DNA of 64,000 bases, taken from IMG/VR virus record IMGVR_UViG_3300006217_000030, positions 1-64,000 of that record; one strand, written 5' to 3'. The notes beneath the pieces are model-generated. The model was not told where the DNA came from, did no database searches, and saw only the letters and a list, made by a program, of their open reading frames with translations. This stretch comes from a virus. Both the position numbers and the translations under genes were made by a program. Of the stretch, positions 28,291 to 43,663 are shown piece by piece. Positions within the stretch are counted from its first letter, which is position 1, and each line of letters starts with the position of its first letter.

Positions 28291-31200
28291 CTAAAACTTT
28301 TTCAGAACATTTTGGAACGGATTTTTAATATCACCCAATACGCATTCCGACATCCTCTGTTTATTTCTTGGCTGGTTTAGCTGTTGGAACATAGATTCCA
28401 TATCTACTATTCCGCTTCCATCTAAATGTACATTAATATCTCCCGTATTAACAGAAGTATTATTCGTGTTATTGACAGGGACACTTTCATACTTTGGCAT
28501 CATGTCAGTATACTCAAACGGCATACCAAGATGTGCCATTAATATCCGTTCCTGCTCTGGCGTAATCTTTGAACCAACAGGTATATACCTGTCTGCAATC
28601 TTCTTTACTGCTTTTGTCTCTTCTTTTGTGAGGACAGCTTCACCTTTCTGTATGGTAATTATTCCGTCATCACCGTTATCCTTTGCAGCTTTATTTAATG
28701 TACTTGCAATACCACCGTCTGCAAATCCAGCGTTCTTAAAGGCATTACGAATTTTAACGGATTCATCATAGGTAATGTTCTTTTTATCCTTAAGGCTGAT
28801 ACCAAGCATTTCGGCAAGTTCCGCTTCCTTTGCTTTGGTCAGATAACCTTTCTTATTGTATTTCTTATCAAGGTACTGCAATAGTTTGTCCGTTGCAATC
28901 CGCATGGATTCTTCCGTATTCTTTGGTTTGCGGAGGTTCTTTTTCAGAAAGGAATCAATTTCCGCATCCTTTCCAACCCTGTTATTATCAGATATGGTTT
29001 CCTTGCCTGCTGTTGCAGTATTGTTTGTGGTATCTGCAACATTATGTTCTGATGACGTTCCGTTTTGTACAGCCTGTACCAGATTATCCTTACTTTTTTC
29101 AACACTTTCACCGAATGCTTCTTTTTCATCCTGCAAAACCTTGTTTAAGTCGCTGGTTGTATCCGTGACACGTTTTACTTCGTAGGTTAAATCGTCTGCT
29201 GCGGAAGTTGTATCATCAATGCTTGTGTCAAACTTATTGTTTACATTCGTGCCTGTCTTGTCATATGTGGATTCATAGGAATTACCGCCATAATCAATAC
29301 TGCTGTTGGTATGTGTCCCGTCCGGGTTATATGTGGTAATAATGGACAGGGCATCTCCGAGTCCGAGTTCATCCAGTGCCCTTGCAACAGCTTCCGGGTT
29401 ATCCGTAACCATCTGTAACAGACTGTCCATGGAACCGTTTATGTCTTTTCTCAGGTCATTCATGATTCTTTCCCAGAAATCCTCTACTTCGTCAGCAAGG
29501 GTATCAAGCATGTCGGTCTGGTCATCATACCACTTATCATACTCCGTGTCCCTTAGTTCTTCCTGTGCTTCCTCAAGGCTGACCTGTAACTTTTGTAGTT
29601 TTGCCCTTGCTTCCTCACTGTGGTCACCTGATAATGCTGCAATCTGTTTCTGTATTAAAGCAATATTCTTTGTCTGCTTTGCAACCTTTTTTTGGTATTC
29701 GTATAAATCTTTCTCTGTTGCCAGTGCATTCTTTTTCTTTTCAATCAGCTCATTAATGGAATCAACCTGTACTTGTAATGCATTCTCTACAAGGTCAAGG
29801 ATGGCATCTTTCTCATCTGCAATGGCTTTTGTGCTGTCCCTTATGATATCAAGCTGCTCCTCACGCTTTGCCATAAATTCCTCTTCGTTGTATCCGTCTG
29901 TACCATCTGCATGTTTTTCATACAGTTTATCCAATTCCTTCTGTGCATTCTCAATAACCTTCTTATGATTATCCATGTTTGAGAATCGGAGCGATATGGT
30001 GGCAAACCCTTCATCCGTCAGACCTCCTGATTCCTTGCTGGTCAGTTCCTCATGTGAGAGCATGTCAACCAAAAAGTCAAGATGGCTCTTTGTGGCATCA
30101 AGCTGCGCTGCCATAAGTGAGAATTTCTTAAAGTCTAATTCATTGATGGCTTTTTGGAATTCAATGGTCTGCTGTGTGCAGGAGTAAAGGGACTGGTCAA
30201 TGGATTCCATGTCATTTTTCCATGCATACCATTCCTTAGAACCGTATTCAAACTTCTTCCCGGCTTCCTCCAGTTCCGAACGTTCCTTTAACAGCTTCTC
30301 TTTTGTGCCTTCATTAATCTTCATCATCCCATCATACAATGACTTGGAAACAGACTGCCCAGCGGCTTCCAGTGTGGCAATTTCAGACTGTATGGTTGAA
30401 ATCCTTGCGTCATTCAGACCTGTCTTATTGTCATATTCCGCTTTGATATTGTCATACATCTTTTGATAGGATTCATTGACTTTTTCCTGTTTCTCAGCCT
30501 GTAAGCGTTTCTGCTCTGTGGCATCGCCTTCCAGTTCAGCAATCTTAATCAGTTTATCGTACTGCTTATTCAGGTATTTCAGGCTTTCGGCTTCATATTT
30601 GTTCTTATCTTTTGCGGAAACAGCATTGGTTTCATACTGCTGGTTCAGGTTGTATTTTGCCTCTGCTTCATCAGCATAGTTTTGCGCCCGTTCTATGCGT
30701 TTCTCACGCATGTTTGTTTCATTCTGCTCTTTGGCAAGTTTCTTATCACGTAAAACATCTGCTACAAAATCAACACTGTTATTGTAGTTAAGAAGCTTTT
30801 GATAGGTTGCCGTATTGTGCTTTCTGACTTTCTTCATAAGGGCAGAAGGGATTTCCTTACCCTGCTTAATCAGTTTTTTGATTTTATTCTTCTCTGATTT
30901 GCTAAGCCCTTTTGTATTATTTACGGCAGACTTTGCAGTTTTCCCGCTCTTATTCCTTTGTGTTTTAGATTCCTGATAGTACTTTTTATATGCCTCGTTG
31001 TCTGACTTGTAGGTATTGATTTCCTTATTCAGAATCTTATGTTTCTCTTTTGCGGTTGTGGCATTGGCGTATCTTGCTTCCTGATAGGTGCGCTTTCTCT
31101 CGTTGTCCTCAAGCTTCAAGTCTAACTTCTGTTTTGAGAGGTCTTTGATTTCTGCTTTGAGTTCCTGTACCGCTTTTTTAGCATCTTTTACTTTATCAAT

Positions 31201-41690: not shown

Positions 41691-43663
41691 GAAATCCGTA
41701 CACTTATACGGCATTTACCGATGTTCTTGAAACTGGCGAATAATCCGGCTCCTGCACCGATAGTTCCCAAAGGAGTTAAAACAGATACAAGTTTTGTCGC
41801 ACCCTGAACTATACTATTCAACAATTTTACAAATGACTTTAAATCATCTGATTTAATCATACTGTTGACAAGTTCCGTCCAACTATTGGATAACTCATTA
41901 AGAGAACCTGTTAAATTTGTAGCTGATTTGTTTGCTTCTTCTAAAGCGCTCCCTGAACCTTCAGAATAATCAATAAGCATTTTATCAAACATATTTATGT
42001 TCTGAAGAAGCGCAGATAATTTGTTAGCCTGATATTTACCACCAACATTTGTTAAAATTTCTGCTCTTAACGGGTCATCTTCATCTAGCTGATTAAATGT
42101 TTTTGCCAAATCCCTTATTATATTAATGGGATTACGGAGTTTTTCTGTTCCATTGACAAATTCCGTCATAGAAGCATTAGCCTTAGTTAGTGTATTAGTG
42201 ATTTTATCTGATGTTACATTTTGTAAATTGATAAGCAGAGATTTAATACTATTACCCACTTCTGAACCACCAGATTTAGTAACTGATTCCATAGTACCAA
42301 TCATTGCTGATAAATCTTCAATAGCTACATTATAACTGGAGGCAACAGTTCCAGCTTCGCTCATGGCGATTGCCATATCCTCTAATGCTACGCTGTTGCG
42401 ATTTGAGATACTGTTCTGACCATCTAATACTTCATTTATCTTACTTGCTTCACCATTGAACTTATATGCAGCATTTGTTGCTATAACATATTTATCTGCA
42501 ATATCTTGTGCCATATCACCAGCAGACTGTGCAAGTAATGACTGTTCTGCCATTGCTTTTCCTTTTTCTCCATAGAATCCTGATTGTGACATGCTTTGAA
42601 CACCAGATAAATAATCACTGGCAACTCTACCATATTTACTTGCAGTATTATATGATTCTTCTCCTAATTGTTTTAATTCTTTGGTAGTTAAATCCGATGT
42701 TTTACTAACTTCGGTTAAAATATCATCAAGTTCTTTAATTTCTGAAATTGAATTTTTTATCTGCGAAACTACAAGCATAACACTAGAACTTACAGAAAGC
42801 CATTGTGAAAATCCTTGCGCAGCTTCTTTAAATTGATTGGTTAGTGAAGCACCTAATCTGTTAATTCCACGCATAGAATTTTCAGTTTCCTTAAAGCCTC
42901 TGGAAATCTGCTCAAATTCCATTTTAGTCATTTGTACATTCAAATTACGGAGGCTTGCTATATATGCTTCGTTTTTGGATATAGCATCTTTAGTAGCATT
43001 ACTATTTTTTTGATTCCATGCTTCAATCGCGTTTGCCTTTGTTAATCTTTGATGTATACTTATATATCCCTTTGCAGAAGATTGTAATTTTGTGTATTCA
43101 TTACTTGATTCAGCTAATTCTTTCTGCAATTTATCATTAAGCGAAATAATTTCCTGATAATTGCTTTTGTCAAAGGGCTGATTAACCCTTGTTTTTAATG
43201 CTTCAAGTGCTGATGAAACTTTTGAGGTTTTTTCGGTAATTTGATCTTCTGTTAATCCAAGACTTCTATATTGTCCTTCTAATTTTGTAAGCTGAGTAGA
43301 GTAATCATTCTTAATTCCACCATTAGATAAAAGTTGAATTTTGTTGATTTGTTCAGTTACTTTTTTTATTTCATTATTAATTTTACTGCTTGATTTACCA
43401 ATTCCGTCTGTGATATTTTTGGCAATAGTATTTCCAATTTGTTGCCCAGTTTTTGTATCAAAGTTTATATTAGAAATATTTATTTTCTGATTAAGTATTC
43501 CCTCTAACTGTTTCACAATATTGGATATACTTTTCGGATCAAGTTCAGCTTGAATTTTTAATTTATCAAGTTGTCCTTGGATTTTTCCTATATCACTATT
43601 AATATTTCCTTTAGATTTAGCTTCGTCTAATTTAGCTTGGAGTTCTATTAAAAACTCATCCAT
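41687..43663 (-). CDS. Tail tape measure protein, N-terminal portion with TP901-family core region (658 aa)
   Basis: Core-region-like segment AQSAGDMAQDIADKYVIATNAAYKF...LEDMAIAMSEAGTVASSYNVAIEDLSAMIGTMESVTKSGGSEVGNSIKSLL. N-terminal coiled coil. Ends in the hydrophobic GTIGAGAGLFA. RBS GAAGGAGG. Confidence 0.75.
   Translation of the reverse strand: MDEFLIELQAKLDEAKSKGNINSDIGKIQGQLDKLKIQAELDPKSISNIVKQLEGILNQKINISNINFDTKTGQQIGNTIAKNITDGIGKSSSKINNEIKKVTEQINKIQLLSNGGIKNDYSTQLTKLEGQYRSLGLTEDQITEKTSKVSSALEALKTRVNQPFDKSNYQEIISLNDKLQKELAESSNEYTKLQSSAKGYISIHQRLTKANAIEAWNQKNSNATKDAISKNEAYIASLRNLNVQMTKMEFEQISRGFKETENSMRGINRLGASLTNQFKEAAQGFSQWLSVSSSVMLVVSQIKNSISEIKELDDILTEVSKTSDLTTKELKQLGEESYNTASKYGRVASDYLSGVQSMSQSGFYGEKGKAMAEQSLLAQSAGDMAQDIADKYVIATNAAYKFNGEASKINEVLDGQNSISNRNSVALEDMAIAMSEAGTVASSYNVAIEDLSAMIGTMESVTKSGGSEVGNSIKSLLINLQNVTSDKITNTLTKANASMTEFVNGTEKLRNPINIIRDLAKTFNQLDEDDPLRAEILTNVGGKYQANKLSALLQNINMFDKMLIDYSEGSGSALEEANKSATNLTGSLNELSNSWTELVNSMIKSDDLKSFVKLLNSIVQGATKLVSVLTPLGTIGAGAGLFASFKNIGKCRISVRIS

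Follow-up and report, generated by a model that had tools for sequence, protein, structure and literature searches.

Examination of the tape measure protein (TMP) region of the window (the complete stretch of 64,000 nucleotides of viral DNA analyzed here) suggests that two ORFs, ORF1 and ORF2, most likely represent exons 1 and 2 of a single SPbeta-like tape measure gene, separated by a presumably self-splicing group I intron. The 6.2-kb interval between them is, with good probability, built like such an intron rather than being a disruptive insertion or an intergenic gap. Such an intron would be unusually large and cargo-bearing for a bacterial virus, and the spliced product would be a 3052-aa TMP.

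Colinearity of the two ORFs with intact tape measure proteins

The preliminary description had regarded ORF1 and ORF2 as complementary halves of one canonical TMP, the first holding the TMP core, the second lacking it and containing a hydrophobic segment, with tail genes downstream. Both ORFs were found as described, on the minus strand, and each of these assignments held up (Table 1). ORF1 is preceded by a Shine-Dalgarno sequence (AGAAGGAGG) and matches Pfam PhageMin_Tail (PF10145) over residues 340–541 (8e-21), along with PHROG TMP profiles, the latter only over the N-terminal part of the profiles (for example, positions 552–949 of 2625 in phrog_4211). Searches of ORF2 against Pfam and PHROG detected no TMP core, and Pfam detected no lytic transglycosylase or peptidase domain in exon 2; the hydrophobic segment lies at about residues 160–195. 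As also noticed previously, the ATG of ORF2 has no Shine-Dalgarno sequence (the preceding sequence ends in ctccacaataatataaatatatagtATG) and a divergent gene begins about 100 bp from it; if ORF2 is a 3′ exon, the absence of a ribosome-binding site is expected.

The two comparisons proposed in the preliminary description, alignment to intact TMPs and a search for contiguous TMP genes in related genomes, both support the complementary-halves view. On the intact TMPs of Sundance, BUCT083, L024, and L030, ORF1 and ORF2 map to consecutive regions: residues 1–645 of ORF1 align to residues 378–1087 of the Sundance TMP, whereas residues 107–312 and 1844–2048 of ORF2 align to 1051–1257 and 2053–2289, respectively, with a similar outcome for L024 and L030; exon 2 thus runs colinearly along the C-terminal two-thirds of the intact proteins. 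The intact SPbeta-type TMPs of Bacillus phage BUCT083 (UOX38301.1) and Brevibacillus phage Sundance (YP_009194085.1) share the domain order (coiled coil, PhageMin_Tail core, hydrophobic segment, long coiled coil, conserved C-terminal region) and a similar gene neighborhood, with a YomN-like gene upstream and tail proteins downstream, although sequence identity to the window TMP is only 20–24% and the window gene is interrupted.

The junction is codon-exact. The window sequence FKNIG followed by IFKTFDSD corresponds to FKGNG-IFGYNKD (L089) and FKGNS-IFGNIVD (L030) in unbroken TMPs, the in-frame fusion across the intron being GLFASFKNIG-IFKTFDSD, and the DNA of intronless relatives at this point reads GGC-ATATTC. 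Exon 1 ends with the codons AAC AUC GGU (G649), and the TMP core HMM stops at its position 350, which corresponds to window position 41717. ORF1 homologues have a common sequence as far as KN.G and separate, discrete tails beyond it. The ORF1 C-terminus (GTIGAGAGLFASFKNIGKCRISVRIS, followed by the stop codon) includes the tail KCRISVRIS, which is identical, together with the stop, in P0005, P0089, P0095, and P0120, proteins that are otherwise 49–73% identical; the stretch encoding it is part of the conserved 5′ end of the intron. The N-terminus of exon 2 (IFKTFDSD...FGKSFNDF) is kept in relatives and runs on from the end of exon 1.

Using the core HMM, we found the TMP gene split at the same codon, with 1.0–7.3 kb inserted (putative introns of 1.0–7.2 kb), in about 30 related Lachnospiraceae phages, and contiguous through HMM position 350 in about 35 relatives. 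Several split relatives (L019/20, L049, L053, L015/55, L027, and L071) have no start codon at the beginning of exon 2, and their frames remain open for 75–96 codons before the first ATG; the halves would therefore have to be joined rather than function as separate genes. The TMP gene of relatives also holds small introns at other core positions (HMM ~122, ~177, and ~245), and one of them, in L029 (10752–11148), is recognized by Rfam Intron_gpI (37.2 bits, E 1.8e-7).

Table 1 Features of the interrupted tape measure gene, the putative intron, and its cargo (window positions).
Feature	Position	Strand	Size, pairing or basis
ORF1 (TMP core)	43663-41687	-	658 aa
Exon 1, codons 1-649: N-terminal coiled coil, PhageMin_Tail core	41717..43663	-	Pfam, PHROG, core HMM
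Read-through of exon 1 into putative intron (apparent ORF1 C-terminus)	41687..41716	-	9 codons (KCRISVRIS) and stop
Putative group I intron, whole	35503..41716	-	6214 nt; splice-site table, intronless relatives
5′ ribozyme domain (GC-richer, no ORFs), with P1 to P9-type hairpins	41110..41716	-	607 nt; nhmmer, RNAalifold, folding
Internal guide sequence GAAUAU, GCC	41663..41671	-	covariation with exons
P1 distal strand CGAUGUUCU	41583..41591	-	pairs exon 1 positions -11..-3 (AGAACAUCG); covariation
P3 5′ strand AAAUCG	41570..41575	-	pairs 41295-41290; covariation
P4 5′ strand GCUGG	41540..41544	-	pairs UCAGC 41346-41342 (Q-like AAUCAGCAACGG)
Catalytic-core pseudoknot: R-like GUUCAGAGAAUCUAAACG, P7, P3 3′ strand, P8, J8/7 UAAUAG	41260..41310	-	
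P7	41304-41300 with 41264-41260	-	3 compensatory pairs
P3 3′ strand	41295-41290	-	pairs 41570..41575
P8	41289-41284 with 41277-41272	-	1 compensatory pair
Last 5′-domain hairpin UUUCUCC...GGAGAAA, loop with GUGGA (41126-41122)	41108..41143	-	complementary to 3′ loops
Cargo ORF	40403..40714	- (sense)	103 aa
Cargo ORF	40157..40402	- (sense)	81 aa
Cargo ORF	39688..40164	- (sense)	158 aa
Cargo ORF, hydrophobic (membrane-like)	39278..39691	- (sense)	137 aa
Cargo ORF, N-terminal membrane anchor	37907..38788	+ (antisense)	up to 293 aa
Cargo ORF, C-terminal zinc ribbon (weak DUF7479)	36156..37646	- (sense)	496 aa
Terminator-like hairpin after 496-aa ORF	36166-36143	- (sense)	
Double zinc-ribbon protein gene (cargo)	35607..36089	+ (antisense)	159 aa from ATG 35607; frame open from 35544
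3′ hairpin 1: AAGAGU-GUCCACA-ACUCUU	35557-35539	-	loop complementary to 5′-domain loop
3′ hairpin 2: UGUAUUA-CUCCACAA-UAAUAUA	35537-35516	-	loop complementary to 5′-domain loop
Terminal intron G (omega-G)	35503..35503	-	G in 12/12 classes
ORF2	35505-28291	-	2404 aa
Exon 2: linker, hydrophobic segment, coiled coil (~2000 aa), C-terminal conserved motifs	28291..35502	-	2403 codons and stop
DUF6558 phage tail protein, after ORF2	26073-26939		
Tail protein, C-terminal Peptidase_S74 domain, after ORF2	21818-26086		1422 aa

Putative ribozyme domain, 3′ hairpins, and cargo genes

The predicted 5′ splice site follows U41717, and the last intron base is the G of the ORF2 ATG. The base at position -1 of the 5′ splice site is U in 11 of the 12 intron classes and C in L049, where it faces an A of the guide. 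The codon closed by the invariant terminal G is ATG in five classes, ACG in three, TTG in two, and CTG and TCG in one each; the ATG formed with G35503 gave exon 2 the appearance of an independent ORF in the window.

The interval is AT-rich (21–27% GC), except for the GC-richer, ORF-free 600 nt directly after ORF1. This 5′ domain is present in a single copy (nhmmer, 41715–41111, E 7e-166), folds with z = -3.3, and shows compensatory changes in 35 of 102 pairs (RNAalifold), with P1, P3 (a pseudoknot), P4, P7, and P8 arranged in group I order. Under the group I topology, 93.2% of the cells are paired, compared to 32–44% with slid partners, and 22 of the 54 pairs covary by compensatory change; none of 500 shuffles reached the observed score. 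P3 is 100% paired and includes two compensatory pairs (AUACCG/CGGUAU in L029), whereas P4 is paired in all but invariant and hence uninformative for covariation; the hairpins between the P4 strands covary (RNAalifold). The L029 counterparts of the R and S elements (ACAGACUAGAAAC...AUAGUCG) are close to the classical group I consensus. The intron RNA matches no Rfam family, Intron_gpI included, even when a short query is searched at E ≤ 10, so the group I assignment rests on the comparative model presented here.

The guide is complementary to both exon ends: GAAUAU (41671–41666) to the start of exon 2, AUAUUC (P10), and GCC (41665–41663) to the end of exon 1, GGU (P1, with G.U at the splice site). 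Both complementarities covary, across four exon 2 classes and five exon 1 classes: the guide is UACUGC-GCC with GCAGUA in L042, UGCGAG-GCUCAG with CUCGCA and CUGGGU in L099, and UUUACAA-GCUC with UUGUAAA and GGGU in L023, and the variants GCCGAC, GCCGAA, GCCUGC, and ACCGAC vary in step with the end of exon 1. P1, in the window's class, is broken by a ~70-nt two-hairpin insert between GCC and the distal strand, leaving only three base pairs (GGU/GCC) adjoining the cleavage site; the distal strand has five covarying versions in this class, with four pairs of helix 1 changed on both sides.

At the other end of the intron, relatives contain 1–5 hairpins like those of the window immediately 5′ of the 3′ splice site, and TCCAC occurs in 2–5 copies in the last 130 nt, compared to 0–0.3 per 130 nt of cargo. 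The loops covary with that of the last 5′-domain hairpin: UGUGGA/UCCACA is replaced, in three variants that change in concert, by GUUUGGA/UCCAAAC (L071), UGUUUGG/CCAAACA (L017; extendable by a U.G wobble pair, as read from the loop sequences), and GUUGGG/CCCAAC (L029). The loop complementarity probably serves as a tether for the remote 3′ splice site.

Between the two RNA modules lie seven unrelated ORFs, two of them antisense. The four ORFs closest to the ribozyme domain (103, 81, 158, and 137 aa) have no significant match in Pfam, PHROG, PADLOC, or NCBIfam, and the 293-aa ORF produced only a weak match to a superinfection-exclusion PHROG (E 0.0055). The antisense zinc-ribbon gene is the sole cargo gene kept in nearly all such introns, including the minimal ones of 1.0–1.2 kb: antisense homologues were detected in about 25 introns (tblastn), and none of the 139 homologues is named. 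Its C-terminal motif (CPxCGSxN...RAVKTAxFG...DDAGKTxKCxNCG) is conserved, and its AF2 model (pLDDT 82) has no significant fold match. No homing endonuclease was recognized among the cargo (Pfam, PHROG, PADLOC, NCBIfam, and fold search). Ribozyme domains that are 97–99% identical carry unrelated cargo (L106/L108/L115; L017/L071), and therefore the conserved unit is the RNA ends, not the cargo.

Splicing model and alternative explanations

Sequence comparison establishes the codon-exact colinearity, the covarying helices, the regularities at the splice sites, and the conservation of the architecture; from these features, we infer the following pathway. A group I ribozyme core would form from the 5′-terminal 607 nt of the intron, and in it the guide GAAUAU-GCC and the distal strand would pair to the exon 1 terminus (...AGAACAUCGGU, with G.U at the cleavage site) and the guide also to the opening bases of exon 2. 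The ~5.4 kb of cargo that follow would consist of accessory (moron-like) genes, presumably with their own expression signals. The last ~55 nt would form two hairpins whose UCCACA loops would pair with the GUGGA loop ending the ribozyme domain, carrying the remote 3′ splice site into the core. Guanosine-initiated splicing would then join GGU to AUAUUC and produce the TMP mRNA, with the predicted junction AAGAACAUCGGU-AUAUUCAAAAC; unspliced RNA would yield the 658-aa ORF1 product, including the nine-residue intron-encoded tail.

The length of the intron, its two antisense genes, and the sense-strand terminator-like hairpin could be an obstacle to continuous pre-mRNA synthesis. Conceivably, exon 1 and the 5′ ribozyme domain belong to one transcript and the 3′ hairpins and exon 2 to another, started at an intron-internal promoter, the two RNAs associating through UCCACA/GUGGA loop pairs and P10 before being trans-spliced by the same ribozyme. 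The physically separate RNA modules with antisense genes and the hairpin between them, intermolecular-style kissing loops with up to five copies on the 3′ side, and freely exchangeable cargo would all fit. We nevertheless consider this scheme unlikely: a conserved terminator after the 5′ domain is absent in relatives, a promoter scan found no more than the shuffled level (49 sites vs 51 expected), the minimal introns of 1.0–1.2 kb (L099, L023) are not too long for conventional splicing in cis, and phage late transcription often reads through terminators. A single-piece pre-mRNA, spliced in cis, thus appears preferable to a two-piece one. Somewhat less likely still is that the TGTGGA/TCCACA motifs are inverted DNA or RNA sites for a protein, such as the antisense zinc-ribbon protein, delimiting a mobile cargo cassette or regulating the antisense gene. 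The exchangeable cargo lies exactly between these motifs, there is overlap of the 3′ copies with the probable promoter region of the zinc-ribbon gene, and no other cargo gene is kept in nearly all introns; however, the motifs reside in hairpin loops that remain mutually complementary while the stems vary, a signature of kissing interactions, and the zinc-ribbon protein has no recognizable nuclease, recombinase, or DNA-binding fold. Splicing would be needed under this explanation as well.

The preliminary description had offered two other mechanisms, a genuinely two-part TMP and a recent disruptive insertion yielding a defective prophage; neither appears to be the best explanation for an interval that starts with group I core helices and an exon-pairing guide and ends with a conserved G. 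ORF2 might be translated separately from ATG 35505 and assembled non-covalently in the tail, the RNA being a relic or serving another purpose. This is very unlikely, despite the ATG located precisely at the exon 2 boundary of the window, the stop codon of ORF1 nine codons inside the insert, and the precedent of functioning genes split by mobile elements, such as nrdA of Aeromonas phage Aeh1, split by mobE. Apart from the missing Shine-Dalgarno sequence, the ATG is replaced in relatives by ACG, TTG, CTG, or TCG, with only the G invariant, several relatives have no start for 75–96 codons in a frame that is open and homologous, and the guide changes in concert with each of the two exon ends, which selection would not maintain in a relic. 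An island, transposon, or decayed intron that recently inactivated the TMP gene would account for the AT-rich, compositionally distinct interval and for cargo genes without known phage function. We regard it as highly improbable, given that about 30 phages, with core-protein identities of only 36–80%, share this architecture at one and the same codon, with both exons intact and compensatory changes in the RNA; furthermore, no recombinase or transposase was found, no target-site duplication was seen by eye in the junction sequences, and every other structural gene in the window is intact.

Comparison with known split genes and group I introns

Group I introns in TMP genes are already known; a giant phage intron with several genes and swappable cargo appears to be new. 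According to Tourasse and Kolsto (2008; PMC2504315), TMP genes of Bacillus cereus-group prophages contain group I introns at three insertion sites (IVS1-3) and so resemble the window gene, in which the putative group I intron likewise interrupts a prophage TMP gene of a Firmicutes host. The relatives of the window phage also have several small introns at recurrent TMP core positions. As far as is known, the B. cereus-group introns are small and of ordinary size; unlike them, the window intron is 6.2 kb long (1.0–7.2 kb in relatives), holds as many as seven ORFs, oriented both ways and with no recognizable homing endonuclease among them, is not recognized by Rfam, and is bipartite at the RNA level (5′ core and 3′ hairpins) around exchangeable cargo.

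The T4 nrdD (sunY) intron is said to have a remote 3′ splice junction, with the catalytic core at the 5′ end, an ORF in the 3′ part, and base pairing (P9.0/P10, terminal domain) that returns the 3′ site. The window intron is similar in its 5′ core and far-downstream 3′ splice site needing base pairing to the core; however, the T4 intron reportedly contains a single sense ORF of about 0.8 kb, whereas the window intron would loop out several kb of multi-gene cargo and be tethered by repeated loop-loop (kissing) contacts. A giant group I intron of many kb with several unrelated genes inside, ND5-717 of hexacoral mitochondria, is described as undergoing unconventional processing by back-splicing (PMC6545197). 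The window intron, too, would be a many-kb group I intron harboring several unrelated genes. The cargo of ND5-717 consists of essential host genes in an internal loop, and that intron is inherited vertically, unlike the variable accessory genes of the phage intron, which occupy the 3′ tail and are swapped between near-identical ribozymes. Finally, genes-in-pieces of the Aeh1 nrdA/mobE type likewise present an essential phage gene as two ORFs parted by foreign DNA. In these genes split by mobile endonucleases, every piece is translated from signals of its own and the resulting proteins associate, whereas the pieces in many relatives of the window phage have no independent start signals, and the ribozyme and guide features of the insert point to joining at the RNA level.

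The tape measure gene and its setting

The window has a GC content of ~31%, and a minus-strand phage structural module extends over it from ~16.8 kb to 64 kb (see the table); its distant similarities are to the SPbeta-like large siphophages. The coding strand switches at ~16700-16850, where the GC skew changes sign, and two of the plus-strand genes at 1-16.7 kb (4448-5128 and 9142-11298) encode products with 62% identity to those of MT835469, a 176-kb fecal phage. The genes for the endolysin and a RusA-like Holliday junction resolvase (49672-50920, -) occupy an unusual position between the head and tail genes, and the tail fibre- or spike-like genes (44725-46464 and 46549-47478), one of which codes for an S74-type intramolecular chaperone region at the C-terminus, are located upstream of the tail tape measure protein (TMP) gene, not downstream. 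Directly downstream of the TMP gene, a 224-aa ORF (27483-28157, -) matches the Pfam Proteasome-subunit (Ntn-hydrolase) family over residues 11-74 (27.5 bits, E 2.9e-6, above the curated threshold); this protease-like protein adjoining a giant TMP could be a candidate processing enzyme.

The preliminary description held that two ORFs ~6 kb apart, ORF1 (658 aa) and ORF2 (2404 aa), look like complementary halves of one TMP. Both are present where they were reported. ORF1 contains the core region, PhageMin_Tail (PF10145), at residues 340-541, and matches long TMP profiles over their N-terminal third only; no core domain was found in ORF2 with Pfam or PHROG. The ATG of ORF2 lacks a Shine-Dalgarno sequence, and ORF1 has a strong one. 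Between the two lies a 600-nt ORF-free, GC-richer stretch followed by an AT-rich block with seven ORFs, of which two run in the opposite direction. Alignment to intact SPbeta-type TMPs places the two ORFs in consecutive regions, with nothing missing or duplicated, as expected of complementary halves: ORF1 aligns with residues 378-1087 of the TMP of phage Sundance, and ORF2 with residues 1051-1257 and again with 2053-2289; the TMP of phage BUCT083 presents the same ORF1-ORF2 order, and the contiguous TMPs of the IMG/VR relatives L024 (2003 aa), L030 and L035 the same colinearity. The junction peptide of the window, ...ASFKNIG | (M)IFKTFDSDIDK, has the counterparts ...TFKGNG IFGYNKD (L089) and ...AFKGNS IFGNIVD (L030) in uninterrupted relatives, and at the DNA level the window exons, once fused, give ...ATCGGT|ATATTC, in agreement with GGC|ATATTC where there is no intron. 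Provided that the exons are joined, the product has the layout of a TP901/SPbeta-type TMP, with PF10145 in exon 1 and, in exon 2, a hydrophobic segment and coiled coil that are colinear with intact TMPs; the DUF6558 tail protein and fibre-like genes follow downstream.

Locations of features in the window and in related loci (L numbers)
Feature	Location	Strand	Remark
Portal	60778-62115	-	structural module
Endolysin	50171-50920	-	PHROG endolysin families, E 1e-36
Tail-fibre-like genes	44725-46464 and 46549-47478	-	upstream of TMP gene
YomN-like gene	43739-44164	-	structural module
ORF1 (exon 1 part of TMP)	43663-41687	-	658 aa
Putative intron	41716-35503	-	6214 nt
Last 5'-domain hairpin	41143-41108	-	loop with complementary (U)GUGGA
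3' hairpins, two	35557-35539 and 35537-35516	-	UCCACA-type loops
ORF2 (exon 2 part of TMP)	35505-28291	-	2404 aa
DUF6558 tail protein	26073-26939	-	downstream of TMP gene
1422-aa tail protein, S74-containing	21818-26086	-	downstream of TMP gene
Related-intron cargo: GmrSD_N (type IV restriction-like) and LytTR response regulator	L007:13099-14921; L009:12859-17747		
Further TMP-core inserts	L029:10752-11148; L031/L032 ~10397-10889; L030 ~4343-4756		core HMM
Further TMP-core inserts, other loci	L018/L013, L033, L034, L076/L077, L110, L113		

Interruption of the gene among relatives

More than 1500 homologues of ORF1 were found, the best 120 of which are all 540-1118 aa long, none full length. 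They are alike up to ...G(A/L)GLFAG.KN.G, after which each has one of a small set of distinct short tails, for instance KCRISVRIS-stop, which recurs in proteins only 49-73% identical; the tails are read-through into conserved inserted sequence. A TMP core HMM was run over >100 loci related to this one, taken from IMG/VR, metagenomes and genomes of GTDB; the GTDB source genomes are Lachnospiraceae (Parablautia; mouse and human gut MAGs). The contiguous form of the gene does exist: ~35 loci are uninterrupted through the junction. Another ~30 are split at exactly the junction codon, with an insert of 1.0-7.3 kb and the giant ORF always next; an intron of this kind, 1.17 kb long, is present in L047, from the cultured mouse-gut isolate 'Bacterium 1XD8-76' (RAZE01000033). 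The split is ancient and shared, and the recent disruptive insertion envisaged in the preliminary description is very unlikely. Its other alternative, a genuinely two-part tape measure, is unlikely as well because exon 2 does not stand as a gene of its own: several relatives (L019/20, L049, L053, L015/55, L027, L071) lack a start codon at that point, their frame being open and TMP-homologous for 75-96 codons before the first ATG, and the codon that closes the insert, although always ending in G, varies over the 12 intron classes, with ATG in five, ACG in three, TTG in two, and CTG and TCG in one each. Given its own ATG, some separate translation of ORF2 may be possible in the window. A split intein was rejected: ORF1 has only nine residues past the junction, and ORF2 is TMP-homologous from its second residue, which leaves no room for an intein fragment.

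The junction is one of several interruption sites in this gene. Others recur in the TMP core of relatives at HMM positions ~122, ~177 and ~245, where the inserts are either 380-520 nt long without an ORF or ~2 kb with one. The 400-nt insert of L029 matches Rfam Intron_gpI with 37.2 bits (E 1.8e-7; the gathering score is 50), and a profile of the ribozyme domain of the window matches L113:3014-3208, at core position ~176, over profile positions 199-400, that is, the P4-P6 region (nhmmer, E 1.4e-8); related ribozymes thus occupy different sites of the same gene. The TMP family is an intron hotspot, the window itself having a single intron.

A megablast search of the region against the phage collection gave no match, and exact-pattern scans of IMG/VR found neither the 5' end of the intron nor an intronless allele of the window junction. 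With tblastn, ORF2 retrieved a single distant record, MT835469, with the same split. In this phage (L001 = 109314-134078, reverse complement), ORFs lie at 38-844, 1277-2416, 3276-4706, 6337-7080 and 8665-16833 of the locus. In a 268-aa ORF of this locus, the match to PhageMin_Tail stops after the first 140 of 201 profile positions; zinc-finger/DUF4379/CapR/DUF723 and DUF3800 genes follow, the C-terminal TMP part (2722 aa) starting ~7.8 kb downstream; given the partial core and the intervening genes, the MT835469 TMP gene may carry more than one interruption.

RNA features of the insert

Every class has, ~32-51 nt inside the insert, a segment of the form X|GC(C/U)... whose 3' portion base-pairs with the end of exon 1 and forms a G.U at the cleavage site (A opposite C in L049); the 5' portion, directly next to the GC(C/U) strand of P1, base-pairs with the six opening bases of exon 2. 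Guide and exon 2 covary: GAAUAU|GCC is found with AUAUUC (window, L029), UACUGC|GCC (L042) and UACUGU|GCC (L019) with GCAGUA, and UUUACAA|GCUC (L023; exon 2 UUGUAAA) and GUUACAA|GCCC (L053) with UUGUAAAC; the guide of L099, UGCGAG|GCUCAG, pairs with CUCGCA of exon 2 and CUGGGU of exon 1. The same holds for the end of exon 1 and the guide, with the combinations GUCGGU/GCCGAC, UUCGGU/GCCGAA, GCAGGU/GCCUGC and CUGGGU/GCUCAG and, with C opposite A, GUCGGC/ACCGAC. The P10 pairing is weak in L049 (4/6). In the class of the window, P1 comprises GGU/GCC and a distal strand of 8-9 bp, CGAUGUUCU (41591-41583), which pairs with exon positions -11 to -3 and occurs in five covarying versions. This contiguous P10/P1 layout is that of a group I internal guide sequence. 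The base preceding the insert is U in 11 of the 12 classes and C in one, and the last base of the insert is G in all 12; the U at -1 and the terminal G follow the group I rules. The L023 and L053 classes are in phase 1 (GGGU|...G|UUGUAAAC), and the reading frame still closes.

Nine members of the window class were aligned, and RNAalifold detected compensatory changes in 35 of 102 pairs. When a group I topology was imposed (P1, intron-start hairpin, two insert hairpins, P3 5' strand, hairpin, P4, P5/P6 region, P4', P7, P3', P8, P7'), 93.2% of the cells were paired vs 32-44% with slid partners, and 22 of 54 pairs changed on both sides; none of 500 shuffles reached the observed values. P3, the pseudoknot, is 100% paired, with two compensatory pairs, P7 has three and P8 one; P4 is always paired but invariant, and the hairpins of the P5/P6 region covary. 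The order of the core elements is P3-P4-(P5)-P4'-(P6)-P7-P3'-P8-P7'. Near P7, GUUCAGAGAAUCUAAACG...UGUAAUAGGGGUUC in the window and ACAGACUAGAAAC...AUAGUCG in L029 resemble the classical R and S elements; a bulged A before a G-C pair, read by eye, possibly lies there. The ribozyme-domain profile has a single match in the window, at 41715-41111. Rfam RF00028 (Intron_gpI) did not match the junction RNA even at E<=10 (761-nt query), nor the junction introns of relatives, and Rfam scans of the region, the whole window and the relatives returned nothing for the junction RNA; hence, the group I assignment rests on the comparative model. The Intron_gpI model of Rfam is known to miss divergent phage introns. 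A separate search detected no tRNA genes.

The last ~55-130 nt of the introns contain 1-5 hairpins with variable stems and conserved loops, (C/A/G)UCCACA, complementary to the loop of the hairpin that ends the 5' domain. Changes in one motif are matched in the other: UCCAAAC/GUUUGGA in L071, CUCCAAACA/UGUUUGG in L017 and CCCAAC/GUUGGG in L029. The final 130 nt contain TCCAC 2-5 times vs 0-0.3 times per 130 nt of cargo, that is, the genes inside the intron. From this complementarity, we infer a kissing-loop tether that would bring the distant 3' splice site close to the catalytic core; possibly, the inverted loop motifs serve a DNA- or protein-level role instead.

Proposed splicing, cargo and comparison with known introns

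We consider it likely, from the comparative sequence evidence, that a group I intron joins the ORF1 and ORF2 halves. Splicing would ligate G649 (GGU, 41717) to AUAUUC (35502), the spliced RNA would read ...AAGAACAUCGGU|AUAUUCAAAACAUUUGAC across the exon junction, and the product would be a TMP gene of 3052 codons; the sizes in contiguous relatives are comparable (L056 runs 3070 aa past the junction, and L035 has 3254 aa in total). The predicted TMP would have a mass of roughly 340 kDa and, at 0.15 nm per residue, would correspond to a tail ~450 nm long. A group II intron was considered on account of the long-range exon pairing and the GUGCG start in L050 and was rejected: domain V is missing, the 3' end is wrong, and P3, P7 and P8 are in group I topology. 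The window intron starts with AAAUGC and ends with UAUG, the group II rule being 5' GUGYG and 3' AY; moreover, there is no Rfam group II match and no reverse transcriptase among the cargo. Excision at the DNA level, as in a skin-like element, was discarded given that the island contains no recombinase. A trans-splicing version of the group I intron takes a minor share, roughly one part in five, of the likelihood that we give to group I splicing as a whole: the continuity of the pre-mRNA is put in question by a terminator-like hairpin on the sense strand (36166-36143) and by the two antisense genes that the intron contains, but no conserved terminator follows the ribozyme domain. A promoter scan yielded 49 sites vs 51 expected in this AT-rich DNA.

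None of the seven cargo ORFs of the window could be assigned to a family, defence system or fold with significance, and no homing endonuclease (LAGLIDADG, GIY-YIG, HNH, His-Cys or PD-(D/E)XK) was detected among them, in searches of Pfam, PHROGs, PADLOC and NCBIfam. The cargo of relatives at the same place includes GmrSD_N, a LytTR response regulator and DUF3800; the presence of GmrSD_N and LytTR suggests, from gene content, that the intron can hold defence or regulatory accessory genes. In two sets of loci (L106/L108/L115 and L017/L071), ribozyme domains 97-99% identical accompany unrelated cargo, so the RNA modules are constant and the cargo exchangeable. One cargo gene is nearly universal and always antisense, being found also in minimal introns of 1.0-1.2 kb; its product (window 35607-36089) is a double zinc-ribbon protein with 139 unnamed homologues and a very conserved C-terminal ribbon, whose AF2 model (pLDDT 82) has no Foldseek match in PDB below E 0.4.

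Combined, these observations prompt a tentative reading, to which we give slightly less than an even chance: phages that infect gut Lachnospiraceae would have a family of giant bipartite group I introns, each a splice-out "cargo bay" within a late gene that is essential. The ribozyme module, 0.6 kb long, and the short module of 3' hairpins would pair across or between transcripts via programmable kissing loops, so that kilobases of exchangeable accessory genes could reside in the TMP gene without cost to the tail, perhaps mobilised between phages with the intron. Because the modules would find each other by kissing loops, cargo such as GmrSD-like proteins, regulators and membrane proteins would be tolerated within the TMP gene. 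Separate transcription of the two modules would make it the first natural case of a trans-splicing group I intron in a bacterial virus.

Group I splicing at this junction would extend the range of bacterial and phage group I introns to sizes of up to 7 kb, to contents of several genes lying in either orientation, and to an exchange of cargo behind a ribozyme that stays constant. It would also reveal a site, not recognised before, where temperate phages collect accessory and possibly defence genes, which would be protected from counter-selection by being spliced out of an essential gene. The complementary loops suggest a simple RNA device for recruiting a remote 3' splice site, and the modular ribozyme and tether could serve engineered large-cargo or trans-splicing ribozymes. 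Apart from their interest for RNA and phage biologists, these introns have practical value for annotation: "truncated" TMPs and giant orphan coiled-coil ORFs, which annotators of gut phage genomes will meet again, would be exons of one gene.

That group I introns occur in TMP genes is already known, the TMP genes of B. cereus-group prophages being riddled with them (PMC2504315). Multi-gene giant group I introns are described only for hexacoral mitochondria (PMC6545197). A non-exhaustive search of full-text literature retrieved no account of a group I intron, in phages or bacteria, whose cargo comprises several genes and is exchangeable or whose 3' splice site is tethered by kissing loops. The present intron recalls T4 nrdD/sunY, with its remote 3' splice site and an ORF in the 3' tail.
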